From positions 275,849 through 339,848 of the forward strand of contig CAYNHQ010000001.1 of NCBI GenBank assembly GCA_964397255.1: a stretch of DNA of 64,000 nucleotides, written 5' to 3'. Positions within the stretch are counted from its first letter, which is position 1. Each line of letters opens with the position of its first letter. The position numbers and the translations under genes were made by a program. The stretch comes from an uncultured bacterium (GTDB lineage Bacteria > Bdellovibrionota_G > JALEGL01 > DATDPG01). The notes under the pieces are model-generated. The model was not told where the DNA came from. It saw nothing but the letters and a program-made list of their open reading frames with translations, and searched no databases. Below, in pieces: positions 13,654 through 56,104 of the stretch.

Positions 13654-15521
13654 AACAGTCAATTTCTTTTCAGCATCCCGTTTCGTGTTGAACGAAATTT
13701 CTCCCGACACTCCCGGAAATTTTTGGACGGCGGCAAGTGCGGCCGAAAAAGCTGAACGTGAGGACTGATGTTGACTCTGAAGGACCGACAAAACAAGGCT
13801 GACGGTATCGTAGGCTTGGGCTTCGAATACGCCGGGCTCCTCTCCATAGAGGGAGTAAAAGCGCTCCATAAATTTGGAGACAGCAGGATCTTTTTTCCCC
13901 TTGTAAAAACTATCGAGAAATACAGATCCCTGAAAATAAGCTCCTTTGTCCCCTCCCTTGAGAATCTCCGGCGAATTCCAGAGATTGGTTCCAAGAAGAA
14001 CCACTCCGCGAATATCGTAGTAGCTCAAGGCTGGTGCAATTTGCGTCGCCTTTTCGGCATTGTCGGGAACAAAGAGGGCTTCAAAGTCGACAAGATTTGG
14101 GGAATTATCAGGCCGAAGTCCCGGCGGATCAAGGCCCACGATTTTCTTTAAAGGGGGGCCAAAGTCGTTGGCCTCGGGATCGTAACTTTCCGCCCCGCGA
14201 ATTTCCCCGCCCCGCTTCACAAACTCCTCCCAAAAAAGGCTCATAAATTCCGTTCCGTAATTGTTGTCAGGATAGAGTAGCGCGACACGGCGAATGCCCA
14301 ATGTATCGTGAGCCACAGCCGCAAGAGAAGCGGCTTGAGAAGACTTTGTCAGCCCATTTCGAAATATCGTGTCGCCCAGTTCAGTAATCCCCTCGGCCGC
14401 GCTCAGCGAAACCATCGGAAGCTCATATCGGCTCGCCGCTAGCGCTGCCATTTGGCTTTGCTTTGCAAAGAGGGGGCCTATGACGGCGATTACCTTTCGT
14501 TCGTTCACCAGTTTTTCAAGCGCGGAAACCGCTTTTTCCGGATCATCCCCTGAATCTTCAATATAAAATCTCGCTGCAGAGGTTCCGGCGGCCGGAGAAA
14601 ACAGATTCATTGCAATGGCCACACCTCGCAACATTTGATTGGCGTAAAAACGGTTGTTCCCGGAAAGAGGAGCCAAAATTCCAATCGCATTGGAATCCAC
14701 ATCGGTCGATTGCTCCAACGCAGCGGAAAGCTCCACGGCCTCGCGGGTATATTCCAGGTCTCGAAATTGATTGAGATACATCGAAATCCACTTTCGAGCC
14801 GCAGCACGATCTCCAGCATGATAGGCGAGCTTAGCTAATTTGAAACAAGCGTGGCCTGCCGGGAAAAAAGTTTTTCGAATCGCCAACATCTGCTCTAGAT
14901 CATCTTGAGTAGCTGATTGATCCAGAAGCTCCACGATTTCGTTTTGGAGGGCGACATTGGGACGCTGTGTGGAGGTTGCATCGTAAAAGGAAATCAAGAA
15001 ACGTAGCTTCCATTTTGGAACATTTGTCTTGTCGAACGATCCTCGAGCCGCTTCCTCTAATGTTCCGATGCGAGCGAGAGGAACCTTGGTCACATCAATC
15101 GTTGCAAAAAGCTCGGCGGCTCCCCGGTAGTCACGGCGCGCGTAGCGGAGTTTAGCCAGCTCCTCTTTCCCTTCGTTGGTCGCGTCTCCCGTGGGATATC
15201 GAGTGACCAGCGATTCAAGCAGCTGTTCCGCTTCCGGCAATTTCTTTCGAAGGCGCTGGATTTGGCTGGAACGAAGAAGAGCGTTATCGGCGTACTCGGA
15301 CATCGGCATTTCAGAAACGATCGTCTGGTATTTCTTAAACGCTTCGTTGTAGTGTTTTTTCTGCAGAAGAATTTCAGCATCGTCATAATCAATTTTTGCG
15401 GCTTGATTGACGGGCATTTCGACTCCATTGCGAATGACCATTGGGCCCTTCGCACAATTCGAAACGAGAATCATCAAAAAGCCGGAAAGGGCAAGGTAGC
15501 GGCTATTTCGAGACACTGCTG
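13615..15521 (-). CDS. LpoA-like lipoprotein: N-terminal TPR-like domain plus C-terminal LivK-type periplasmic binding domain; likely start is GTG/TTG/ATG within 15519-15560
   Basis: Signal peptide [20 protein letters not shown]; TPR-like helices; C-terminal half [21 protein letters not shown]...LLYPDNNYG matches the Leu/Ile/Val-binding fold; total ~640-650 aa. Confidence 0.55.
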
Positions 15522-17314
15522 TAAAGAGTTTCCGCAATTTGGTGGGTAATATCATTGAGAAGCGCCAATGCCTCGTTAATAGTATTAAAGTCATCACTTT
15601 CGGCTGCCTCTCGCGCCCGTTGAAGCGAATCTTCCAATCGATTTCGATCTTCCTCAGAGAGCTTGGCCGCCAAGTCCTTGAGGGATCGTTCTGTGGAGTA
15701 AAGCAGGCCGGCCAGTTCATTCTTAGCGTCGACAACACGCTTCATCTGTTCATCATCGGCCGCATGGGCTTCGGCATCAGAAATGATCTGATTGATTTCA
15801 TTTTCCGTAAGACCGCTGGTGGGTGTAATTCGCACACTTTGTTCCCGCTGGGTAGCCATGTCTTTGGCCGAAACCGATACAATTCCATTGGAGTCGATAT
15901 CAAATGTAACTTCAATTTGAGGAACTCCGCGAGGAGCCGGCGGAATTCCAACCAATTCAAAGATCGCGAGGGATTTATTGTCTTTGGCCAGCTCCCGCTC
16001 TCCCTGAAGGACATGGACACGGACCATCGGTTGATTGTCAATCGTGGTCGAAAAGATCTCACTCTTTCGTGTAGGAATAGTGGTGTTCTTTTCAATTTGT
16101 TTGGTGAACACCCCGCCCTGCGTTTCGATCCCCAGGGAAAGTGGCGTGACATCGAGGAGAAGCACTTCTTCCACATCTCCCTGAAGAATTCCCGCTTGAA
16201 CCGCTGCGCCGATGGCGACCACTTCATCGGGGTTCACTCCCGACGCGGGCGCTCGTTTAAAAATCTCCTTTGCCTTTTCAATCACGCGGGGCATCCGAGT
16301 CATACCACCCACAAGAATCAACTCTTCAATTTGCGCCACATTCAGCCCCGCATCTTTAAGGGCTGTTTCGCAAGGAGGGCCAAGACGATCAATGAGGTCT
16401 TCGACCAACACCTCAAGCTGGGCGCGCGTAAGTTTGGTGCTTAGATGCTTGGGTCCACTCGAATCGGCCGAAATAAATGGGAGATTAATGTCGGTTTCCA
16501 AAGAGGAGGAGAGTTCATGCTTCGCTTTTTCCGCAGCCTCCTTCAAACGCTGCAACGCCATGCGGTCTTTCCGAAGATCGGTATTGTTCGCCTTTCTAAA
16601 TTCCTCCACCAGCCAATCCACGATTCGCATGTCAAAATCTTCGCCGCCGAGGAAGGTATCGCCGCAGGTCGCTTTCACGTTGAAAACATCTGTTGCGATT
16701 TCAAGAACGGAAATATCGAACGTTCCGCCCCCCAAATCGAACACGGCGACATTTCCAGTTTTTTTCTTATCCAAACCGTACGCAAGTGCAGCTGCTGTCG
16801 GCTCATTGAGAATTCGTTTCACATCAAGGCCGGCGATTTTTCCGGCATCTTTTGTCGCTTGTCTCTGGCTGTCATCGAAATACGCCGGCACCGTAATAAT
16901 CGCTTCGGTCACTTCTTCGCCCAGATATTCTTCAGCCGTCTCTTTCATCTTTTGAAGAACAATCGCCGAGATCTCGGGCGGACTCATCATCTTGTCTCCC
17001 AATTGAAGCCAGGCATCCTTGTTCTTGGAAGGAACGATTTTAAACGAACAAAGTTCAATTGATTTTTGAGTCTCCGGAGAATCGTACTTTCGTCCAATGA
17101 GTCGTTTGATGGCGTAAAAAGTCCGCTCGGGATTTGTAATTGCCTGTCGCTTTGCAACCTGACCTATCAAGCGTTCGGAACGATCATTAAATGCGACCAC
17201 CGAAGGGGTGGTTCGAGAGCCTTCGGCATTTGGAATAACCACCGGTTCGCCCACTTCCATGATGGCGACACAGGAGTTTGTCGTTCCCAAGTCAATTCCA
17301 ATGGTTTTACCCAT
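15503..17314 (-). CDS. dnaK: Molecular chaperone DnaK (Hsp70)
   Basis: [20 protein letters not shown], canonical Hsp70 throughout; 603 aa. Confidence 0.97.
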
Positions 17315-17350
17315 ACGTTAATCCTGCCACAGAGCTCTTTTTGATTCCGC

Positions 17351-18004
17351 TTATTTTTCGTCAGCGGGCCCGGAATTCCCCTCTGTTTTGGGGGTTTCTT
17401 CCATTTTTTGGTCCTCCGGTCCCTTGGAAACCGTCACTACGGCGGGTCGGATCAACCGCTGGTGGAGAAAATAAGCTTTTTGGTGTTCCTCCATGATCGT
17501 TTGGGGAGGGTGCTGATTGGAAGAAGCATGGCTGACCGCCTCGTGAATGAGAGGGTCGAATTTCTTTCCCTCTGCACTTTCTGCCCGCACGCCGAAGCGC
17601 TCCAACACCGTTTTGAGCTGGGACAGGATCAGCTCCACCCCCTTGCGCATCGCATCGGTGTCCGTTGCTTTCTGCGAGTGCTCGACGGCCCGTTCGAAAT
17701 TATCCAGAACCGGAAGGATTTCGCGCACCAAATTCTCATTTCCATAAAGCATGAGTTCTGACTTTTCTTTCTGCACGCGTTTGCGGAAATTATCGAAATC
17801 GGCCGAAACACGAAGCAGCCGGTCGTACACTTCGTCAGCGGTCATTCCGCCGTATTTTTTTTCTTCCTTTTTTCCCGACTCTCCTTGTTTCTCGGCGGAG
17901 GTCTCTCCATTTTTATCGGGAGACGATTCTTTGCGGTGGCGGTCGACACTTTCCACCGCTTCTTCGATCAAAACCGGATCGACTTCCATTTTTGGTTCCT
18001 TCAT
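17351..18004 (-). CDS. grpE: Nucleotide exchange factor GrpE
   Basis: GrpE coiled-coil and C-terminal beta domain; position between hrcA and dnaK; ATGA overlap with hrcA. Confidence 0.9.
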   Translation of the reverse strand: MKEPKMEVDPVLIEEAVESVDRHRKESSPDKNGETSAEKQGESGKKEEKKYGGMTADEVYDRLLRVSADFDNFRKRVQKEKSELMLYGNENLVREILPVLDNFERAVEHSQKATDTDAMRKGVELILSQLKTVLERFGVRAESAEGKKFDPLIHEAVSHASSNQHPPQTIMEEHQKAYFLHQRLIRPAVVTVSKGPEDQKMEETPKTEGNSGPADEK

Positions 18005-19059
18005 GACTCCTTTTTCTCCTGAAGCACTTCCGTCAGTATTCGGCTCGTGAAATCCACCAACGGAACGATACGAGCATAATCCAGCCGCGTCGGTCCAATC
18101 ACACCAAGGACACCGCGATTTCCTTCACTATCGCTATAATCCGAAGTGATCATCGTTAGACCATTGATTTCAGGAAACTGATGCTCGCCTCCGATGGCGA
18201 TCTTCACGCCCGGGCTGGCGAGGGATTGATCCAGCAAACGGATGAGAAACGTTTTTTCTTCCAGCGTTCGTAGAATCTGCTGCATCCGATCAAAATTTGT
18301 AAATTCCGGCTCTTGAAGCAAAAGATTGCCCCCTTCAATATGCACGCCCGGAGTGGAATCTGAAAAAGCTTGTTCAGCTAGCGTAAGGGCGCGCCCCAAA
18401 ATCTGATCGTACTGCCTCTGAATTCGTTTCATCTCCAAAAGAATTTCTTTCCGAACATTGGCGAGAGTAAGTCCTGCGAGTCGTTCGTTAAGATAATTGT
18501 GCATTCGGTTCAGTTCTTCTTGCGAAATCGCACGGTCGATTTTTAAAATTTTATTTTCAACAATTCCACTCCCTGAAACAAGAACGGCAAGAACGAGTTT
18601 TTCTTTCAAGGCAATAAACTGAACATGTTTCAAACTCCGGTCATCCGGATTGGGCGAAAGAGCGAATCCGGGTTGATGGGAGCGGTTCGAGACCAATCGG
18701 CAGGCATCCCGCAGGACTTCATTCATGTCATCGACCCCGGTCTCGACCCTTTTCCGGATCTCCTCTCGTTCCTGGGGAGTAAGGGGTCGAAGGCGCATGA
18801 GCTGGTCGACGTAAAATTGATATCCGGACGGAGTGGGAACCCGACCCGACGAGGCATGGGAGCGCTTCAGAAAGCCCCTCTCTTCGAGCTCCGCCATGAC
18901 TGTCCGCACCGTGGCCGAACTGATCTCAATTCCTTTCTTTCTAGCTACTTGCGCAGATCCGACCGGCTCGGCCGACATGATATAGTCGCACACCACCGCA
19001 TAAAGGACCTCTTTTTTTCGATCAGATAGTTCCACGAACAGGATAACTGCCTGAATCAA
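18001..19059 (-). CDS. hrcA: Heat-inducible transcriptional repressor HrcA
   Basis: N-terminal LSDRKKEVLYAVVCDYIMSAEPVGS winged helix; ~350 aa; hrcA-grpE-dnaK order. Confidence 0.9.
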   Translation of the reverse strand: MIQAVILFVELSDRKKEVLYAVVCDYIMSAEPVGSAQVARKKGIEISSATVRTVMAELEERGFLKRSHASSGRVPTPSGYQFYVDQLMRLRPLTPQEREEIRKRVETGVDDMNEVLRDACRLVSNRSHQPGFALSPNPDDRSLKHVQFIALKEKLVLAVLVSGSGIVENKILKIDRAISQEELNRMHNYLNERLAGLTLANVRKEILLEMKRIQRQYDQILGRALTLAEQAFSDSTPGVHIEGGNLLLQEPEFTNFDRMQQILRTLEEKTFLIRLLDQSLASPGVKIAIGGEHQFPEINGLTMITSDYSDSEGNRGVLGVIGPTRLDYARIVPLVDFTSRILTEVLQEKKES

Positions 19060-27226: not shown

Positions 27227-27263
27227 CCGTTATCAAATCGTGTTCCCGTGGGGATGACAAGAA

Positions 27264-30200
27264 TTAGGGAAGAGCACCCGATTCCCAGTCCTTGACCGCT
27301 TTAGCCATGACGGTTTGCAGTCTGCTTTCCGTCTCTTGAAAGATACGTTTCGGTGTTTCCTCATCCCTATCTTTTTTTCGCTTCTCTTCAATTTCTTTCA
27401 GTCGATTGAGATAGGCATTTTCAATTTCAAGTTGCGCGCCCTGCTGTTCGGCTAGGGACATTGGACCGCGAAGAAGATTTCCACGCGCTTTATTTTCAAG
27501 ATTTTTTTCATTTTCATGAAAATCGCTTTGAGCGATCAATTCATCTTTATAAGCGAGAGCCGCGGTATGCCCTACGACACTCCGAAAAGCAGCCTGAGCT
27601 TCCGCAGCTTTGGTTTCAAACTTCGTTGAAGGCTCTTCCGTGGCGAGAGACTCCGCCAAGTCCTCCCATGAATGTGCGAGGCCCGCCTTTATTTTTCGTT
27701 CCTGATAGTCTCCCCAGAGCTTTTGCTCCAGTTCTCCGAGATAATGGATGAACGTGAATTCCATTACACCGACCGCGAACATCTCAAAGGGATTGAGGGT
27801 CGTCGCCGATTGAATCTTGAGAGCTGAGGAGAAGGATTCCTCTGTGCGAAGTGCTACTCGCGCGATGCGAAATCCTCTGGCAATCCCTTTTGCAGCCGCA
27901 TGCGAGATCAGAACGTTTGGAACTCCGGCAAGAGCCGCCTTCCATTGAAACCCCTCTCCCATTAAAAAGGGGGCGCCTGCAAGAGCGATCCATAGTGGAA
28001 CCATACGCGCCGACATTGCTCCGATTCCCGCTCCTGCCGCTTTTGGAATCACGATATTGCTCAGACCCTGGAGTCGCCTGACTCCTTGATATCCACCGAC
28101 ATAGATGAATTCTCCCGCCGTTCCGGCGATTCCAAGAGCCGCCGCCTCTGCAATTAGATGTCGAACCTCATTCCAATCCCTCCAGCTTTTAAGTTTTTCA
28201 AAATCCCGATCGATCAACGCAACCAGCACATCGGAGGCCAGTTTGGTTGTCACATATCCAGCTCCAGACTTCGCGATTTCTTTCGTAGCCGGAGAAAGCG
28301 ATCGAAGAAGCCGGATCGCCTGTACGGGGTCAATGCCGCTGTTGAGTTGAATTCCTATTTTCTTTGGACTTACTTTTGCCTTGGCAAGAAGGGGACGGAA
28401 CGTATCAAGGATCTGATCGCCCTGTTTGAATTCTAGGGTTTCATCTTCACGAAGGTCTACCCGTATTTTCCCCGTGGGAGCTTTTTTTGAGACAAAACAT
28501 TTCGCTAAGGGATTTTCAATCCAATTTTGGATGAGTCTTCGCAGAGGTCTGGCACCAAAGAGGGGGTCATATCCTTCGCGGGCCAAGAGAGCGAGAGTTC
28601 CCTCCGTTGGCTCGATCTCTATATTTTTCTCGGCTAGACGGCGGTTGACACTTTGAATTTGAAGTTTGGCAATTTGGCGCACCTCCTCTGGAGAGAGTTG
28701 ATTGAAAGGAACCACTTCGTCGATTCGATTAATGAATTCAGGTTTGAATTTTTCCGCAATCGCATCCGTAATCGCTTTTTGGACGGGGTCTTTGGGCGCA
28801 TCCTCTGCCGACATCGCCGAATCACGCATTTTTCGAACCAACGCCTGGGCCGATTTTTCTTCTTCGGCCATAGCGAATCCGATTCCTTTTCTACGCTGGG
28901 TCACTTCGCGAATCCGGTCACTGCCGATATTCGACGTCATGATGATGATCGTATTTTTGAAATCTACCGTTCGCCCTTTTCCGTCGGTCAGGCGGCCATC
29001 CTCAAACAACTGAAGAAAGAGCTGAAAGACATCCGGGTGAGCCTTTTCAATCTCATCCAATAAGATTACTTGGTGAGGTCGTCGACGAACGGCTTCCGTC
29101 AATTGCCCTCCCTCTTCATGTCCTATGTAGCCAGGAGGAGAGCCGATCATTCGAGCGACCGAATGTTTCTCCATGAATTCCGACATGTCGAACCGCGACA
29201 TATTTCGTTCGTTTCCGAAAATGGTTTCGGCGAGCGCTTTCACCAGCTCCGTTTTTCCGACGCCGGTCGGACCGACAAAAAGAAAAACCGGCGGTCGGTT
29301 AGGATCTTGGAGACCCGTTCTCATTCGGCGAATCGCATTCGCCACCGCAGAAATTCCTTCGCGCTGGCCGACCACTCTCTTACCCAGCTCCTCCTCTAGG
29401 TTCGAAAGTTTCGCGCTTTCTTCATTGCCGATTTGCGTGACAGGTACGCCCGTTTGCCGCGCGATCAGCTCGGCTATTTTTTCTGCGGTAACGGAGCCGG
29501 AGAGTTTAGACTGGGAAGAGGGTGTTTTAACGCTTTGCCTGCGTAAGGCCGCACGGCCTGGTTGAAGATGGTGCCGTTCAACCCAGATTGCTCCGCGGGA
29601 ATCTCCCACTGCTCGAAAAAGTTTCGCGGAATCTTCCAGCACACGAATTTGTGTCGCACGGTCGATTTGGTTCACTACTGCCTGACGTTCATCCAAGGGA
29701 GAGAGAGGCTCGGAATCCCCTTCTTGAATCCGCGTTTCTGCCGCCGCTTGATCCAGCAAATCAATCGCTTTGTCGGGAAGTTTCAATTCTTGAACATATC
29801 GATGCGAAAGTTTGGCTGCCGCTTCGATCGCCTCCGGTGTAATGCGTACGCCATGATGTTTCTCCATGGTCTTGGCTTGACGTTTTAAGATTTCGACGGT
29901 TTCGGCCACAGAGGGTTCTGGAACTTGGACGAATTTGAACCGACGGCGCAGAGCGGGATCTTTTTCGACCTCACGAAGATTAACTAGATCGGTAGCGCCG
30001 ATCATCCGGATTTCGCCGTTAGCCAAATAAGGCTTGAGGGCGTTGATGAGAGGAGCTCGTGTTCCCGAGGCCTCTCCCGCGCCCATGATTTGATGGAGCT
30101 CGTCGACAAAAAGCAAAATATCCGGCCGACTTCGTGCGAACGCGATTAATCCCGCCGCGCGCTCTTCAAATTCTCCCCGGTACATGGTGCCTGCTACCAT

Positions 30201-32111
30201 CGCGTTCACATCGACGTTAAGAACGTGAATATCGTGAAGTGATTTCGGGACTTCTCCCTCCGTGATTTTTCGCGCCAGTTCTTCGACGATGGCGGTTTTC
30301 CCCACACCTGGGTCGCCAATTAATAAGGCATTCCGTTTCGTTTTTCGCTGAAGAATAGTGATCAGTTCATTGAGTTCCTTTTCGCGCCCGATTGCAGGTT
30401 CATAGGATTTGGTTCCATCCGTCATGTCTGTAACGAAAGAAGCCAGCGCCTGAGGGATGTTTACCCCCCGTTTAGTCGCAGTTACGGGCGGAGCGACTCT
30501 TTTGGTCAGCTCTTTGCCGAATTCCGTGAGGGCAGTGTTTTGGGCATGTTGTTGTTGAATTTCGATCAGAAGTTTTTCGATAGGTTCAATGACACTCGCT
30601 CGAAATTCGTCCGAACTTCTTTGCAACATCGGACGGATCGAACGCTCTGTTTCGATGGTGTCGTCACCGGGGGTCGTCGCTAATTCATTAAGTGAAAGCC
30701 GGTACAAAAGTGCCGATCTCGTGGCTCCTGCAATGGGAAGGACTTTCATCATTTCATTGGCCCGGATCGTCGCACGGGAAAGTGCAACAGCGAGAGTCGG
30801 ATGAAGTTTCACGGTGGAGGTATCCACCGCCTCTCTTACCCGGAAACGGTCTCCTTTTTTCGTGCCTTGAACAATCAAATTGGAATGACCGTTCAGAAAA
30901 TCGCCATAGGTCGCCACGGTCGAACTTCGGAGGAACGCCGCACGTTTTGCCTCTTCAATCCACCGGTGCATAAGGAGGTCAATCGGGACATCGGTAATAT
31001 TGGTCATTCGCCGAGTTAGCTCGGGGCGAGTCTCATTGGTCGTGCGGGGAACGAGGTCGATTTTTGGAAGTGTGAGTCCCCGGTTTTTCGCTTCGGATTC
31101 AAGAAAAGCTTTACGACGAAGAAGTGAAACTCTTTGCTGAGGAGCAATCTTTCTTTCTTCAAGAAGCCGACTCGATATCGATCGGTATTCGCTATTAAGA
31201 TCCTCGTCTTTGATCAGCAGTCGGCGATCCACAGCCGCTTCGGCAATGGTTTTTAACAAACCCTCACGTGGTCTTTCGCTCAAAATTTCGGAAATTCTGG
31301 CACCTATAGCCTGGCTTTGGGTTCGTTGTGCGGCATCAATGGCCGAGACCAGCATCGAGAAAGAGACATCTTTCTTGGCTAGTCGCGTGAGGTATGCCGA
31401 TTCAATTGCGGAGACGAGTCTGGAACTTATGGATTTTCCACGGCCCAGTTCTCGGGTGATTAATTGAAGCGTTCGGTCAGCCGTTTCCTGAGAAATGGTG
31501 GAATTTTTGGGTTCAGTTACTTCGAGAACTCTCTCAAGAAGAAAAATTCTTCGACCAGGGCGCAAAATATCGATGACTTCGACAAAATCTCCAAGTTGAT
31601 TTTGACTCGGAAGCGGAAGATTCCGTTCCTGCCAAAGATCTAACCATTTCCTACCCAACGAAGGATTGAGATCTTCCACGGCCAGATCGGAGAGATACGA
31701 AACCCACATTCTTTGTGGCTGGTTTTTCCACCAATGGGTGAGTGTTTCCTCTAAGTCAGGAGCATGAAAAAGATCACTGGAATGAATCAGCGAACGGCCG
31801 AGCGCTTCTTCATAGGGAAAACGATATTTAGAAAAGAGTTCAATTAAACGGGGCCCGTCTCCTTTTTCGAGGCCGACATGTTGGATCGTTTCGCGCAAGG
31901 CAAAAGGTGCATTTCGTTGGCCAATGTTTTCCCAGCCACTTTCCTGAACAAAAACTAAGAGAGCTTTTGGAAGGTGCTCAACGGTTTCGCTTAAGCCAAT
32001 GGATGCTCGTTGGTTTTGAGCAAATAGATCTCGACTGATCCCCGCCAAGGCCACCCAGAGGCCCAGGGCGAGAACTCCCCCCTTCGATCCCACGCGATTT
32101 CCCCCCTTCAC
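27264..32111 (-). CDS. Giant (1615 aa) ClpA/ClpB-family double-AAA+ ATPase with large N- and C-terminal extensions
   Basis: D1 Walker A LLIGDPGVGKTAIVEELA (aa ~595), D2 Walker A FLFVGPTGVGKTELV (aa ~945), sensor/arginine-finger regions, Clp-N-like repeats at aa ~430-580 (HPTLAVALSRATIRANEMMKVLPIAG); short D1-D2 linker (ClpA-like, no long M-domain); N-terminal hydrophobic segment GGVLALGLWVALAGI; C-terminal 400 aa with Gly-zipper-like hydrophobic helices. Confidence 0.8.
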   Translation of the reverse strand: MKGGNRVGSKGGVLALGLWVALAGISRDLFAQNQRASIGLSETVEHLPKALLVFVQESGWENIGQRNAPFALRETIQHVGLEKGDGPRLIELFSKYRFPYEEALGRSLIHSSDLFHAPDLEETLTHWWKNQPQRMWVSYLSDLAVEDLNPSLGRKWLDLWQERNLPLPSQNQLGDFVEVIDILRPGRRIFLLERVLEVTEPKNSTISQETADRTLQLITRELGRGKSISSRLVSAIESAYLTRLAKKDVSFSMLVSAIDAAQRTQSQAIGARISEILSERPREGLLKTIAEAAVDRRLLIKDEDLNSEYRSISSRLLEERKIAPQQRVSLLRRKAFLESEAKNRGLTLPKIDLVPRTTNETRPELTRRMTNITDVPIDLLMHRWIEEAKRAAFLRSSTVATYGDFLNGHSNLIVQGTKKGDRFRVREAVDTSTVKLHPTLAVALSRATIRANEMMKVLPIAGATRSALLYRLSLNELATTPGDDTIETERSIRPMLQRSSDEFRASVIEPIEKLLIEIQQQHAQNTALTEFGKELTKRVAPPVTATKRGVNIPQALASFVTDMTDGTKSYEPAIGREKELNELITILQRKTKRNALLIGDPGVGKTAIVEELARKITEGEVPKSLHDIHVLNVDVNAMVAGTMYRGEFEERAAGLIAFARSRPDILLFVDELHQIMGAGEASGTRAPLINALKPYLANGEIRMIGATDLVNLREVEKDPALRRRFKFVQVPEPSVAETVEILKRQAKTMEKHHGVRITPEAIEAAAKLSHRYVQELKLPDKAIDLLDQAAAETRIQEGDSEPLSPLDERQAVVNQIDRATQIRVLEDSAKLFRAVGDSRGAIWVERHHLQPGRAALRRQSVKTPSSQSKLSGSVTAEKIAELIARQTGVPVTQIGNEESAKLSNLEEELGKRVVGQREGISAVANAIRRMRTGLQDPNRPPVFLFVGPTGVGKTELVKALAETIFGNERNMSRFDMSEFMEKHSVARMIGSPPGYIGHEEGGQLTEAVRRRPHQVILLDEIEKAHPDVFQLFLQLFEDGRLTDGKGRTVDFKNTIIIMTSNIGSDRIREVTQRRKGIGFAMAEEEKSAQALVRKMRDSAMSAEDAPKDPVQKAITDAIAEKFKPEFINRIDEVVPFNQLSPEEVRQIAKLQIQSVNRRLAEKNIEIEPTEGTLALLAREGYDPLFGARPLRRLIQNWIENPLAKCFVSKKAPTGKIRVDLREDETLEFKQGDQILDTFRPLLAKAKVSPKKIGIQLNSGIDPVQAIRLLRSLSPATKEIAKSGAGYVTTKLASDVLVALIDRDFEKLKSWRDWNEVRHLIAEAAALGIAGTAGEFIYVGGYQGVRRLQGLSNIVIPKAAGAGIGAMSARMVPLWIALAGAPFLMGEGFQWKAALAGVPNVLISHAAAKGIARGFRIARVALRTEESFSSALKIQSATTLNPFEMFAVGVMEFTFIHYLGELEQKLWGDYQERKIKAGLAHSWEDLAESLATEEPSTKFETKAAEAQAAFRSVVGHTAALAYKDELIAQSDFHENEKNLENKARGNLLRGPMSLAEQQGAQLEIENAYLNRLKEIEEKRKKDRDEETPKRIFQETESRLQTVMAKAVKDWESGALP

Positions 32112-32168: not shown

Positions 32169-32882
32169 ATGCGCGTCGCACGATTTTATGAGCCTCACCT
32201 TCCATTTCGGGGAGGGCGGTTGGTGCTGCGTGATGAAAATCGTCGGATAGCAATCTCTGTTTTGCGCTTGTCGGAGGGAGCGCAAATTGAACTTTTTGAC
32301 GCCAAGGGCCAAATTGCCTCGGCGACCATTCAAGTGGCTTCTAAGAAAGAAATCCGTGTGGAGATTGTGAGCCTACGCCGGGCCGATTTTCCTTCTCCCA
32401 GCCTTACATTGATCCAGGGCCTGCCCAAGGGGGAGAAATCGTCGGAAGTGGTTCAAAAGGGTGTGGAATGCGGCATTTCCAAAATCGTTTTTGTGGAAGG
32501 AGAACATGCGGTCGCCCGAAAAGGGAAGGGGCAGAAAGAGCGCTGGAATCGTGTCGCGATCGAGGCCATGCGCCAAAGCGGAAATCCAATTCTTCCTGTC
32601 ATAGAGGGTCCTTTCCCGCTAAAGGAAGTGCTGGATCACTCTTCGGAAGAAGTTCGCCTCCTGCTGGATGAGAAAGAAGAAAAAAGTTCAATTCGAAACC
32701 ACCTGGAGAAAAAGGCTACGAGCATTGCGATAGCCGTCGGGCCGGAAGGGGGCTGGTCCGACGCGGATCGTGTCCTATTCCGCGCGGCGAAATTTTCGCC
32801 GATTTCTGTCGGACCGTATACCCTACGAACGGAAACCGCAGCGGTATTTGCGATGGCGCTCTCGCGTGCGTTTTACCCATGA
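32169..32882 (+). CDS. rsmE: 16S rRNA (uracil1498-N3)-methyltransferase
   Basis: N-terminal PUA-like region MRVARFY...LRLSEGAQIELFDAKGQ; SPOUT fold; 237 aa. Confidence 0.7.
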   Translation: MRVARFYEPHLPFRGGRLVLRDENRRIAISVLRLSEGAQIELFDAKGQIASATIQVASKKEIRVEIVSLRRADFPSPSLTLIQGLPKGEKSSEVVQKGVECGISKIVFVEGEHAVARKGKGQKERWNRVAIEAMRQSGNPILPVIEGPFPLKEVLDHSSEEVRLLLDEKEEKSSIRNHLEKKATSIAIAVGPEGGWSDADRVLFRAAKFSPISVGPYTLRTETAAVFAMALSRAFYP

Positions 32883-40258: not shown

Positions 40259-42283
40259 ATGGCGCGACGGATCCTTTTTGCCGGTAGTTTTCTGCTTTTT
40301 CCGCTGATCTTTCTTTTTCCCTACCTCTTGGGAAAAAAGCTATTGGGCGGGGCTGACTTTGAAGATTACTACCTTCCCTTGCAGCAGTTCCTTTCCAGTC
40401 AAATTAAAACAGGACATTTTCCGTATTGGAATCCACTGGCACTTCTGGGAAAGCCCACATGGGGGGATCCGGAAAATGCTTTCTTTTATCCCCCGCGTTG
40501 GATTCTTTTCTGGAATCCGGAATACACCATAACCCTGTATGCTTTTTTTCACTTCGCCTGGGCTCACGTGGGCGGCTATCGAGTTGCCAGAGAACTAAAG
40601 CTAGAAAGATTTCCCGCTTGGGTTTCCGGATTTGCTTTCAGCTACTGCGGATGGTCGGCTTCGCACTTTCTTGCCAACCATTCGATGATTCTCGCTGTAG
40701 AAAGTTGGGTTCCACACATCCTGGCGACGTTACTTTCGTTCTCCAAAAAAGAACGATGGGCACATTGGGTCATCATTCTCTTTTTTCAGGGACTCATGTT
40801 GACTCAGGCGGGAGCCCCGCAAACAGCGTACTACGGAGCGGTTTTTTTAATGCTTTCTCTTGTATCGCTTCGCCCCCAATTTCTCATCGAGCGAAAATTT
40901 ATTTTTGGAGTTTTGTTGGCGGCTTTTTCAGCAGCGCTCGTCGCCGCTCCGCAGGGAATCGGCACTTCGATTTCGCATGCAGAATCCGTGCGTGCGGGAG
41001 ACTACCCTTGGGATCGCGCCATTTGGTTTCGTCTCCTTCCAGGACAACTTTCAGAATTTTGGACCGGACTTTCTCTTCAAGAGATCGCGCGAAAAACCGC
41101 GGAAGTTTATGAAACCGGAGTGTTTGTGGGACCCGTGGTTCTCCTTTCTGCGCTTTTGGCGCTTCTTCGTAAAGAGCGCGAGGTCTGGATTCTCTGGGGT
41201 GTGGCTCTTTTGTTTCTTTTGTTGGGGATGGCCGAACCTCCCTGGCTCCTTCGGCTGTTTCGTCTTTTGCCGGGAGCAGGGTCCTTTCGAAGTCCGGGAC
41301 GATTTCTTATTCATACGATGTTGGTTTTGAGTCTACTGTCCGGTCTGGGCTGGAAATGTCTGTGCGAAAAATTGCGGCCGTACCTTCGACCCAAGTTTAT
41401 TCCCTTCCTGGAGGTGGGATGGGCCGCGGCGATTCTTCTTCCTTTGGCCGTTCATTTTTATCGGTATGTGCCGGAAGGGTCGGAGCGCTTTGATGAATTG
41501 AGAGGGAAGCTCGCAGCCACGGCCCGAAATTTGACGGGAGAGAAACGTCCCCGAGTGTTCTTGGGGGCAGGACCATTGCGCCCGAATCAGTTTCATCAGG
41601 AAGGGATTGAAATGGTTTCCGGCCGAGCGCCCCTACTTTCCTGGCGCTATGTTAACTATGTGAGCGGTCCAACGAGGGATGCGTATTGGATCGAAATGTA
41701 TCCCAGCCTTTCTCCGCGCCCCCATACTTCCCTTTCGCTTCTGGCGGCTCCCCTTTTCTTTTCAACTGGGAAAGAAGAAGTGGCCGATTCGTTAAAACCC
41801 TTGGCAAGAATTTCACCCTACATCATCTATGGCGATCCTTCGGCCTCGCCGCGCGTTCGTTTTTTTCCCAAGGGAATAGCCGTACGAAATCGAATTGAAG
41901 CGCGGGATCTTCTTTGGAAAGGAACCAATGCGCTGGAGGAGTTGTGGTACGAGGGTCCCGCGAGAGAGGGTTATTCCCCCGCGTCCAAAGGCAGCTGTCA
42001 ATACCGTATCCCGTCCACCGATCGATATGAAATTGATTGCGAGACCACAGGACCCGGATTTGTTTGGATTAGTCAGGCTTATTTTCCGGGGTGGCAGGCC
42101 ACCGTCAACGGAACCCCCGCCCCCCTTTATCCCGCACATCTTCTATTCCAAACCGTCCCCATTCCTTCGGGGAAAAGTTTCATTAACGTGGAATATCATC
42201 CCCAATACCTTGGACTCTCTTTACTCCTAGCGCTCATCGGCTTCGCTATTCCCAATTCGCTCCTTCTGTGGAGAAGGAAATAA
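40259..42283 (+). CDS. YfhO-family membrane protein (putative glycosyltransferase)
   Basis: Polytopic; N-terminal GGADFEDYYLPLQQFLSSQIKTGHFPYWNP matches the YfhO pattern; 674 aa. Confidence 0.5.
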   Translation: MARRILFAGSFLLFPLIFLFPYLLGKKLLGGADFEDYYLPLQQFLSSQIKTGHFPYWNPLALLGKPTWGDPENAFFYPPRWILFWNPEYTITLYAFFHFAWAHVGGYRVARELKLERFPAWVSGFAFSYCGWSASHFLANHSMILAVESWVPHILATLLSFSKKERWAHWVIILFFQGLMLTQAGAPQTAYYGAVFLMLSLVSLRPQFLIERKFIFGVLLAAFSAALVAAPQGIGTSISHAESVRAGDYPWDRAIWFRLLPGQLSEFWTGLSLQEIARKTAEVYETGVFVGPVVLLSALLALLRKEREVWILWGVALLFLLLGMAEPPWLLRLFRLLPGAGSFRSPGRFLIHTMLVLSLLSGLGWKCLCEKLRPYLRPKFIPFLEVGWAAAILLPLAVHFYRYVPEGSERFDELRGKLAATARNLTGEKRPRVFLGAGPLRPNQFHQEGIEMVSGRAPLLSWRYVNYVSGPTRDAYWIEMYPSLSPRPHTSLSLLAAPLFFSTGKEEVADSLKPLARISPYIIYGDPSASPRVRFFPKGIAVRNRIEARDLLWKGTNALEELWYEGPAREGYSPASKGSCQYRIPSTDRYEIDCETTGPGFVWISQAYFPGWQATVNGTPAPLYPAHLLFQTVPIPSGKSFINVEYHPQYLGLSLLLALIGFAIPNSLLLWRRK

Positions 42284-54417: not shown

Positions 54418-55980
54418 TTAATTTTTATTATTCGAAGCGCCGACCACCGTTCCGGTGGGTCGCGGGGAAGCAGCCGGCAGCTTGGGTTGGAAAGCCATGT
54501 CAATCGGGCTGCGCCCGTGGAAATCAATCGTTCCACCCAAATTATCGATTTGAACACTAAACCCGTCCAGTTCTCCGATCGTGACTCGATTCAAGACAGG
54601 ATCGGCGACTCCCACAACTGAAGCATCTTTTCCCTTTGCGCCCCAAGAGCCGGGATCGAGGGCAATGGATGTCGGTGCGCCTCCCAATTCATTCACTTGA
54701 CCGTACTTTCTAGACTCATATCCACCTGGGTCGAGAGGGTAAGTCAGAAGTTGCGAGCCCTTGATGGCCAGAACAGTGCTGCCATTCGGATGGGCAACGA
54801 TATCGGTAAAACCACCAAGCGATGGCCGGCCCATTTGTCCTCCCCAAAGTTCCAAATATCCTGAAGGAAGAGTTTGATTTTCAATTTGAGAATGCTCGTC
54901 CGTCGTCGGAGTTGGGATTCGGTAGGGTCCCAACTGCATAGAAAGGAAGAACACTCCAAGTTCATTCGCTGCGATCTTCATGGGTACTCCACGAAACGTC
55001 TGCGAGCCGAAACCAAACCCAGCGTAAGCTCCCATCGGGTTTCCGGGATAACAACCGCGGCCAAATCCTTGACTATAAAAAGATTCGGCTACATCGATCG
55101 GCGCGCCGGCATTTTCGCTCAGGTAACAAACATCGAAGGTGCCGTTCACGCCCGGTAATGCGCCATTTGTAGGATCTCGTCCGATATAAAGCCTTTCTCC
55201 GTCGGGACTGAAGGCGATACTTGTCACTCGACCCGTTCCAAAGCCGACTTGCTCTCGAACTTTTCGAACCACCGATGTTCCCGTTCGAATATCGATGGCA
55301 TCCACGCGAAGAATCGACGCACCGTCATTGGTAGCAATCGCAATCAGCTGACCCAACGGAGTTCTGGCACTGGCTATTTCTGTGGGTCCGGAGATGGTGG
55401 GGATGAGGTCCGGGGTTGCAATTCCTCCCGCGCGCAGAATGGGTAAATACAAAACCTTGTTGCATCCTGTAAGCGTGGCCAAGACCACCGTTCCATCGGG
55501 CGTAAATGTGATTTGGCTCATATGACCCTGTTCACGGCTGATGCCTCGCAAGCGCGTGGCGAACCCGAGTGGGTAAGCTCGAATTCCGCTACTGGCAAAA
55601 GAGCGATTGGTGTATCGGTCCAGAAATGAGGCATCGGCTCCCACAAATTCTCCCTGGAGTTGATAGGCCAAGATGTCGACCGCTCCCTTTTCTCCCGGAC
55701 AATCTCCCGGAGTCGCAAGCTGGGGAGTTTGAAGTTCTCCTCCGTAGCCTCCGTTCGGATTTCTCTTCTGATTTAATTCTCCGCCGTAAGAACCATAGGC
55801 CGGGCCTCCCGGAGTATCGTTATTTTGAATGGAGAGAACGGCGGCAACTCGTCCATTGGAGGCATAAGGAGCATTCAATGCCGAAAGAGGGTGCTGTGCA
55901 TCAATTCCATGCCCACCGCCAGAACATGCGGACAGAAATATCGGAACTAGGCCCAACCCAATGAAATACGAACGATTCAT
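54418..55980 (-). CDS. Secreted lipoprotein with beta-propeller-type repeats (NHL/SMP-30-like, tentative)
   Basis: Signal peptide LVPIFLSACSGG; Gly-rich repeated beta segments. Confidence 0.35.
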   Translation of the reverse strand: MNRSYFIGLGLVPIFLSACSGGGHGIDAQHPLSALNAPYASNGRVAAVLSIQNNDTPGGPAYGSYGGELNQKRNPNGGYGGELQTPQLATPGDCPGEKGAVDILAYQLQGEFVGADASFLDRYTNRSFASSGIRAYPLGFATRLRGISREQGHMSQITFTPDGTVVLATLTGCNKVLYLPILRAGGIATPDLIPTISGPTEIASARTPLGQLIAIATNDGASILRVDAIDIRTGTSVVRKVREQVGFGTGRVTSIAFSPDGERLYIGRDPTNGALPGVNGTFDVCYLSENAGAPIDVAESFYSQGFGRGCYPGNPMGAYAGFGFGSQTFRGVPMKIAANELGVFFLSMQLGPYRIPTPTTDEHSQIENQTLPSGYLELWGGQMGRPSLGGFTDIVAHPNGSTVLAIKGSQLLTYPLDPGGYESRKYGQVNELGGAPTSIALDPGSWGAKGKDASVVGVADPVLNRVTIGELDGFSVQIDNLGGTIDFHGRSPIDMAFQPKLPAASPRPTGTVVGASNNKN

Positions 55981-56104
55981 CGTAGTGGGTCTACTAACAC
56001 TATGCGTTATTTTATTCAATCTAGACACCATGGTCAGGTTCTCGGCGGGATAGAGATCAAGTTATGTGCCAGAAGCCGCGACTATAGGAAGGCGATTAAA
56101 TCCA

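Follow-up and report, generated by a model that had tools for sequence, protein, structure and literature searches.

Double AAA+ unfoldases of the class I Clp/Hsp100 type are the closest described relatives of the protein considered here, which is encoded by a 1615-codon open reading frame (ORF) in a 64,000-nucleotide stretch of contig CAYNHQ010000001.1 from an uncultured bacterium; this whole stretch is referred to below as the window. ClpC, which is found in Firmicutes, Actinobacteria and cyanobacteria and, as Hsp93, in chloroplasts, consists of a Clp_N double repeat that binds adaptors and phospho-arginine and two AAA+ modules, D1 and D2, separated by a short middle domain (M-domain). In the ClpC, ClpA and ClpX families, a VGF loop docks ClpP. 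The query protein shares with ClpC the layout of D1, short M-domain and D2 and an [IV]GF loop at the same position of D2 but has, instead of Clp_N, an orphan sequence of about 540 amino acids with a signal-like start and, in addition, a 385-amino-acid C-terminal region; its IGF-containing insertion is about 23 amino acids longer than that of ClpC, and no UVR motif is detected in the protein by Pfam. The highest overall scores are obtained with ClpB/Hsp104 (589 bits for E. coli ClpB), with which all ATPase motifs are shared; however, the long (about 120 amino acids) coiled-coil M-domain of ClpB is absent from the query, whereas the IGF loop of the query is absent from ClpB. ClpA has no M-domain, in contrast to the query with its M-region of ClpC length. 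The ClpG/ClpK proteins, which match the query in a single stretch, add an N-terminal domain and a C-terminal extension to a ClpC-like core, but these extensions are much shorter (the profiles span 932-949 positions, compared to the 1615 amino acids of the query). They are also unrelated to those of the query, and ClpG/ClpK proteins have no signal peptide. All the respective NCBIfam profiles score far below their cut-offs: 719.8 bits against 1232 for ClpB (TIGR03346), 605.5 against 993 for ClpA (TIGR02639), 579 against 885 for ClpV/TssH (TIGR03345), and 568 and 552 for ClpK and ClpG, respectively, against cut-offs of 1900. Thus, judging by these scores, the architecture as a whole fits no named Clp subfamily (not ClpB, ClpA, ClpV, ClpG or ClpK), in agreement with the initial annotation of this ORF, although the core itself can be classified as ClpC-type.

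FtsH, in which one AAA+ module is covalently linked to a metalloprotease and preceded, at the entry face, by two N-terminal transmembrane helices, resembles the query in concept, as a membrane-held unfoldase that works with a protease; the sequence link is confined to the shared AAA+ fold. HSP101 of Plasmodium reaches the vacuole via a signal sequence. This Hsp100 unfoldase of the PTEX complex works outside the producer's own membrane, in the vacuole lumen, where its exit face is coupled to the membrane pore EXP2 via PTEX150; it keeps the N-terminal domain and the M-domain, and a bulky C-terminal fusion impairs export (PMC8016102). The PDB chains of HSP101 (6e10 and 6e11) match the query at about 403 bits. 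The C-terminal module of the query would likewise sit at the D2 exit face, fused to the motor, whereas PTEX employs separate pore and adaptor proteins; the resemblance is one of analogy, not orthology, and a pore function for the query module is entirely conjectural. The reading that we tentatively adopt, and to which we assign somewhat less than an even chance, is that the query is a lineage-specific chimera of natural origin, by which an unfoldase is brought to the envelope or to a cell-cell interface, with export as the favored version. Under this reading, a complete ClpC-type core devoid of Clp_N would sit between the head and the module of a small, head-swapping envelope family whose members bear signal peptides.

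The C-terminal module and its family

The conserved module accounts for about 330 of the roughly 385 amino acids beyond the Clp core. An exhaustive phmmer search started with aa 1215-1615 against 1.84 billion representative proteins retrieves the query itself (P0001, an exact copy of the 1615-aa product in the protein collection, from a 549-kb NCBI contig) and seven other proteins, six of which are genuine relatives, with E-values from 3e-24 to 3e-4. The seventh, the oyster protein P0013, was rejected as a low-complexity/coiled-coil match in seven stretches. P0009 (168 aa) and P0012 (302 aa) are fragments, and P0014 (261 aa) includes, as called, only the second half of the module. The three full-length relatives are P0015 (899 aa), in which a signal peptide and a head of about 500 amino acids without assigned function precede the module; P0010 (2518 aa), with a signal peptide followed by PLD and metallophosphatase/5'-nucleotidase domains; and P0011 (1233 aa), with an M1 aminopeptidase domain and HEAT repeats but no signal peptide as called. 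The module is always C-terminal, behind unrelated heads, and two of the three full-length relatives carry signal peptides as judged by eye (...LLSASASA/QS in P0010 and ...AVSAVWA/EG in P0015). This head-swapping family, with its signal peptides on the full-length P0010 and P0015, is the main point that escaped the initial annotation.

The first half of the module consists of Gly/Ala-rich, moderately hydrophobic helices with the motifs SGAG, LG[IV]AG..GE, RV.PLW.ALAGA and LGVPNVL.AH; in the second half, GV.EFTLIH is followed by long charged helices with EKRARGN..GP and a terminal W-E. The Gly/Ala-rich helices are conserved in position across the family, and the small-residue motif [IV][AG]G..GE is kept in all but one of the five relatives whose sequences include this part. 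Neither Pfam, NCBIfam nor PADLOC yields a match to the module, a PDB profile search with the module alignment produces chance-level matches only, and Foldseek retrieves nothing from PDB for the predicted structure at E<=0.001. The AlphaFold model, based on an alignment of six sequences, has a pLDDT of 51; values of about 67-91 are confined to the long charged helices of the second half, and this moderately confident part supports the charged helical tail described initially. Taken together, the conserved motifs and the recurrence of the module behind unrelated heads indicate that it is a genuine, previously undescribed and rare domain family.

Hydropathy was assessed on the Kyte-Doolittle (KD) scale with a 19-residue window. 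The module helices, which contain R and E residues, score 1.3-1.4 (maximum 1.37) in the query and 1.2-1.6 in the five homologs profiled besides the ORF at L001:409-1473 (+). In the latter, the open frame upstream of P0014 contributes MPRRLICFPLSSFVFLCSNISSLVLPFQFVITLAL and the RV.PLW.ALAGA motif, and the KD value of one module window, at aa 141-159 over the GV-EF motif, rises to 1.86. P0014 was probably called from a wrong start, and the L001 ORF appears as a headless form, with a hydrophobic N-terminus followed by the module; a gene called on the other strand overlaps it. By the hydropathy measure, the module helices lie below the usual transmembrane threshold and are not convincing as constitutive transmembrane helices. 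The Gly-rich C-terminal helices of the initial annotation are thus present, as Gly/Ala-rich helices, but their reported TM-like character is not convincing.

Within the family, aa 2142-2512 of P0010 and aa 861-1231 of P0011 form a 371-aa module with 99.2% identity behind unrelated heads, which suggests that the module was duplicated as a cassette, or subjected to gene conversion, in the recent past; the NCBI contigs of the two genes have the same length of 117,152 bases, so that both genes probably reside on one contig. In P0015, the linker before the module (aa 443-495) contains three [VI]GFT repeats (VVGFT, QIGFT and QIGFT), a curious feature next to the IGF loop of the Clp fusion.

No other protein among the 1.84 billion representatives combines the module with a Clp core, and a search started with the full-length protein recovers only the query itself and matches to the Clp core; by this census, the fusion is a singleton. 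Scans with degenerate module patterns detect no relative in genomes (the GTDB representative set), metagenomes or viral contigs, and tblastn of the module against plasmids gives no match. Within the window, tblastn of the family members matches positions 27366-28361 only, and neither the N-terminal region nor the module is present in a second copy.

The gene neighborhood links the fusion to P0015. On its 77-kb metagenome contig, P0015 is flanked on one side by genes for FtsK, RNase J, an ABC ATPase, a DUF4292 protein, a TPR protein and rsmE, and on the other side by a GGDEF/FHA gene and genes for DAGK, AnmK, two DUF507 proteins, a 609-aa protein, an M16 peptidase, HemN and HrcA. Except for the GGDEF/FHA gene, this is the gene order of the window, so that P0015, in which signal peptide, head and module are present without a Clp core, is the positional ortholog of the 1615-aa gene. 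No remnants of a P0015-like head were found in other reading frames of the window. On the P0015 contig and in locus L003, an oppositely oriented FHA-GGDEF gene lies between the slot of the module gene and DAGK; this gene is missing in the window, where 37 bp (27227-27263) are left between the fusion and the co-directional downstream gene for a DAGK/YegS-like lipid kinase, which indicates that the locus has been rearranged. In the simplest history that we infer, the ancestor would have been an exported protein composed of signal peptide, head and module, into which a D1-D2 cassette without Clp_N was inserted in frame, in a single event, between head and module, with the head evolving fast thereafter. 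The AnmK encoded in the window is closest to that of a Bdellovibrionales metagenome-assembled genome (MAG) (47% identity), followed by proteins from Deltaproteobacteria and Bdellovibrionales (35-37%); the closest relative keeps the GGDEF/FHA-DAGK-AnmK arrangement but not the module gene. By protein similarity, the organism is an uncultured, deep Bdellovibrio-like bacterium.

The Clp core, the N-terminal region and the locus

Pfam detects AAA at aa 596-727, AAA_lid_9 at 734-818, AAA_2 at 942-1133 (222 bits) and ClpB_D2-small at 1139-1214 (80 bits); the last two scores show no sign of decay, although the best Clp matches share only about 46-51% identity with the core. D1 contains Walker A (GDPGVGKT, aa 599-606), a pore loop (MYRGEFEER, 643-651), Walker B (666-673) and the arginine finger region (720-725); D2 contains Walker A (GPTGVGKT, 947-954), a pore loop (990-1002) with the tyrosine segment GSPPGYIGHEEGG, Walker B (1015-1025) and sensor-2 (GARPLRR, 1186-1192). 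The double AAA+ core and both nucleotide-binding motifs reported initially are accordingly recovered, with Pfam coverage of aa 596-1214. In the alignments to ClpB and ClpC, Walker A and B, both pore-loop tyrosines, the arginine fingers and sensor-2 are all intact. As far as can be judged from these alignments, the motor keeps every catalytic and substrate-gripping motif, and the protein is a class I (double AAA+) Clp/Hsp100 protein with all the defining features of the class.

ClpC chains align with the query in a single stretch (approximately 542-1233) that includes the short M-domain; for S. aureus ClpC, the alignment runs unbroken across residues 377-516, with 58 bits. The ClpB alignments, by contrast, fall into three pieces, with ClpB residues from about 425 to 525 lacking a counterpart and a query linker of only about 76 amino acids. 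The insertion with IGF (aa 1077-1079) falls exactly at a break of the ClpB alignments, and the segment 'rrkgIGFamaeee' aligns column by column with 'rnkyVGFnvqde' of B. subtilis ClpC, a segment missing in ClpB. Because the short M-domain aligns in one stretch and the IGF falls on the VGF loop, the core is, on alignment evidence, ClpC-type rather than ClpB-type. Three other proteins, P0003, P0004 and P0005 (1100-1137 aa), form a separate Clp-like family with a weak D1 that Pfam does not recognize and a good D2; they carry N-terminal extensions of about 200 amino acids and C-terminal extensions of about 400 amino acids that are unrelated to those of the window protein, so that long extensions on Clp cores are not unique in themselves.

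At the N-terminus, GGVLALGLWVALAGI (aa 11-25) is the only hydrophobic segment before aa 942, with a KD peak of 1.65 over aa 13-31. The stretch comprises 15-16 apolar residues between a K and an R, followed by ALA/G and LFA/Q sites of the AXA type, a format similar to that of exported proteins encoded in the same window, such as an OEP-family protein, and to that of the signal peptides of P0010 and P0015. By these format heuristics, the segment looks like a cleavable Sec signal peptide, and it is, by its length, too short for a comfortable transmembrane anchor. The initial annotation was thus right about a hydrophobic start, but its anchor-like character appears doubtful; given the sub-threshold C-terminal helices as well, membrane anchoring at both ends is not supported.

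The region that follows, up to the core, has no recognizable relatives in the databases searched. No Clp_N and no other Pfam family is detected in aa 1-560 even at E<=10, and phmmer against PDB yields only two chance-level matches to unrelated proteins (E-values 0.57 and 0.98) for aa 368-575 and no match for aa 26-430, so that the Clp-N-like region proposed initially finds no support. There is also no match to PADLOC or NCBIfam, no internal repeats, and no similarity to the heads of P0015, P0010 and P0011. AlphaFold, applied to the single sequence of aa 7-580, predicts an all-helical structure with a pLDDT of 42. The channel- or adaptor-like role proposed initially for the C-terminal domain is hypothetical; the models of both extensions are of low confidence, and the fold search gave no match.

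Table 1. Coordinates of the 1615-codon ORF and its parts in the window.
Feature	Window position	Strand	Residues	Basis or content
Whole ORF, 1615 codons	27264..32111	minus		first in-frame start to stop TAA (27264-27266), uninterrupted
Probable start GTG	32093-32091	minus	codon 7	Shine-Dalgarno-like GAAGGGGGG at 32109-32101, 7-nt spacer
Signal-peptide-like N-terminus	32019..32093	minus	7-31	MGSK-GGVLALGLWVALAGI-SRDLFA/QNQ; hydropathy, format
Orphan N-terminal region	30492..32018	minus	32-540	predicted all-helical, no detectable Clp_N
D1 AAA+ module and lid	29724..30491	minus	541-796	Pfam, motif alignment to ClpB/ClpC
Short ClpC-type middle region	29496..29723	minus	797-872	one-stretch alignment with S. 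aureus ClpC M-domain
D2 AAA+ module and D2-small	28422..29495	minus	873-1230	AAA_2, ClpB_D2-small, motif alignment
G-IGF-A in D2 insertion	28872..28886	minus	1076-1080	candidate ClpP-docking loop, ClpC alignment
Linker	28266..28421	minus	1231-1282	not conserved in family alignment
Module, first half	27792..28265	minus	1283-1440	P0009, P0010, P0011, P0012, P0015
Module, second half	27267..27791	minus	1441-1615	P0010-P0012, P0014, P0015

The ORF is uninterrupted over its entire length, as initially reported (Table 1). Translation probably starts at codon 7 (GTG 32093) rather than at the first in-frame GTG (32111), because a strong ribosome-binding site, GAAGGGGGG, precedes the former and none comparable is found at the latter; the product would then have 1609 amino acids. 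The N-terminal region is coding, as shown by a frame that stays open over 134 codons before the first ATG. The extensions do not look like an obvious product of frameshift or gene fusion in the assembly: the module is naturally C-terminal elsewhere, including the syntenic P0015, and GC content by codon position and synonymous-codon usage place all five segments of the gene within the range of the 26 other window genes, so that there is no compositional sign of a chimeric assembly. The protein contains a single cysteine in 1615 residues, and there is none in the N-terminal region or the module.

The rsmE-type gene (Methyltrans_RNA and PUA domains; 32169..32882) is divergent, as stated initially, at 57 bp from the 1615-codon ORF or 75 bp from codon 7. 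Beyond the DAGK gene follow anmK, two DUF507 genes and a gene for a PMT_2-like membrane protein, and the window also includes hrcA-grpE-dnaK, ftsK and the genes for RNase J, rimO, recA and alaS; the locus is ordinary core chromosome. No clpP or adaptor gene is present among the annotated genes of the 64-kb window, and no genes of the type VI secretion system are found among the annotated window neighbors (rsmE, DAGK, AnmK, DUF507, TPR and others). The hrcA-grpE-dnaK operon lies at 15503-19059 (minus strand), about 8 kb from the Clp fusion. Membership of the fusion in a heat-shock regulon via CIRCE was considered and rejected, since no CIRCE-like operator, with up to 3 mismatches allowed, is present in the whole window, the region upstream of hrcA included. 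Two other ORFs of the window have almost no family match: a 674-aa ORF at 40259-42283 (plus strand), with a marginal hit to the C-terminal part of YfhO only, and a 537-aa ORF at 54418-56031 (minus strand), with a lipoprotein-like start (...FLSAC).

Sidedness, competing explanations and implications

The protein would be expected to form the usual hexameric ring and to pass polypeptides through it in the direction from D1 to D2. Since D2 is followed by the module, six modules would come together at the exit face, which would also be the ClpP-docking face, and there they would tether or oligomerize the motor on a membrane or envelope surface. As no hydrophobic segment separates the signal from the module, the whole protein would be located on one side of the membrane. 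Which side this is constitutes the weakest step of the argument: the family context and the N-terminal signal favor Sec export, whereas the need for ATP favors the inside. The paradox arises because the full-length members P0010 and P0015 of the module family carry signal peptides. An exported motor would have to obtain ATP from another cell, for example, at a predator-prey interface.

Several considerations weigh against an envelope chimera, especially in its exported version. To our knowledge, there is no extracytoplasmic AAA+ ATPase in bacteria, and we know of nothing in bacteria comparable to the exported Hsp100 protein HSP101; the periplasm contains no ATP, so that export of an intact ATPase appears a priori unlikely. 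The signal-peptide call is itself heuristic, with a start at codon 7 the hydrophobic segment has balanced flanking charges, and P0011, as called, begins without a signal peptide. Membrane association of the module is unproven, given the sub-threshold helices and the poor AlphaFold model, and, with a bulky C-terminal module beside it, the IGF loop may be a mere relic of ClpC ancestry. Furthermore, the fusion is a singleton from one MAG contig, from which selection is not measurable, and the search for relatives of the N-terminal region, a pattern scan of metagenomes that detects none, was not exhaustive.

The proposal of the initial annotation, that the protein is held at the inner membrane on the cytoplasmic side, appears somewhat unlikely, albeit with evidence in its favor. 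In a version of this proposal that includes ClpP as a partner, the N-terminal segment would be an uncleaved or peripheral anchor (N-out, C-in) or non-functional, the module would hold the ATPase on the inner face, and the protein would act on membrane-proximal proteins, which it would extract or unfold and hand over to ClpP via the IGF loop, in the manner of FtsH but assembled from ClpC parts. The intact ATPase and pore-loop motifs and the ClpC-type IGF loop fit this proposal, as does the restriction of ATP to the cytoplasm; with the codon-7 start, the balanced charges leave the topology unfixed by the positive-inside rule, and the module does contain moderately hydrophobic helices rich in small residues. 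However, a hydrophobic stretch of just 15-16 residues followed by AXA-type sites has the format of a signal peptide, and the other full-length carriers of the module combine classical signal peptides with typically extracytoplasmic heads (5'-nucleotidase, PLD), which suggests that the module works outside the cytoplasm. Six modules at the D2 face could also obstruct the docking of ClpP, as judged from the geometry of Hsp100 rings, and the absence of clpP and adaptor genes among the annotated genes of the window speaks against the proposed partnership. Even less probable, in our view, is that the fusion is an accident, namely a very recent, functionless in-frame insertion of a clp fragment, with the frame kept open only because the downstream module is still needed, or an artefact, that is, a chimeric join in a metagenome assembly. 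An origin of this kind would account for the lack of any other protein with module and Clp core in the database, for the positional ortholog P0015 without a Clp core, and for the exported ATPase that would have no fuel; the sequence does come from a MAG, and the pattern scan of the GTDB representative set recovered neither the window genome nor the source of P0010/P0011. It would, however, require two independent in-frame junctions and a 4.8-kb open frame, and composition and codon usage are uniform across the segments. The core has diverged to about half identity with the best Clp matches and yet keeps all motifs and full domain scores, which speaks for purifying selection and against drift, provided that the donor was not already divergent; moreover, Clp_N has been lost cleanly, not truncated at random.

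The envelope chimera, leaning to export, can be extended to a more specific and distinctly improbable scenario, in which the protein is an exported ClpC-type unfoldase of a Bdellovibrio-like predator that the module brings to the prey membrane or inserts there. The module would then be a conditionally membrane-inserting helical domain, similar to the translocation domains of toxins. The protein could function as a self-contained push-translocase resembling PTEX or, alternatively, as an effector that unfolds and digests prey proteins with the ATP of the prey and even, via the IGF loop, with its ClpP. Its partners would be sister proteins in which the same module bears nuclease/nucleotidase and aminopeptidase heads. 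If this scenario is correct, the protein would be the first bacterial AAA+ motor that works beyond its own cytoplasmic membrane.

More generally, if the fusion is real and functional, it either breaks the rule that bacterial AAA+ unfoldases are confined to the cytoplasm or represents a new mode of envelope tethering of a ClpC-type motor. Regardless of the Clp question, the module with its swappable enzymatic heads represents a new family in an uncultured Bdellovibrio-like lineage, and such swapping of heads is characteristic of proteins that are secreted, surface-located or involved in cell-cell interaction. The route by which predatory bacteria bring digestive enzymes to the cytoplasmic contents of the prey is an unsolved question. 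Prey DNA and RNA are broken down by Bdellovibrio, which encodes nucleases equipped with export sequences (PMC3593177). A module for delivery or anchoring that is shared by nuclease, peptidase and unfoldase heads would be a concrete candidate for the delivery of such prey-digesting activities.

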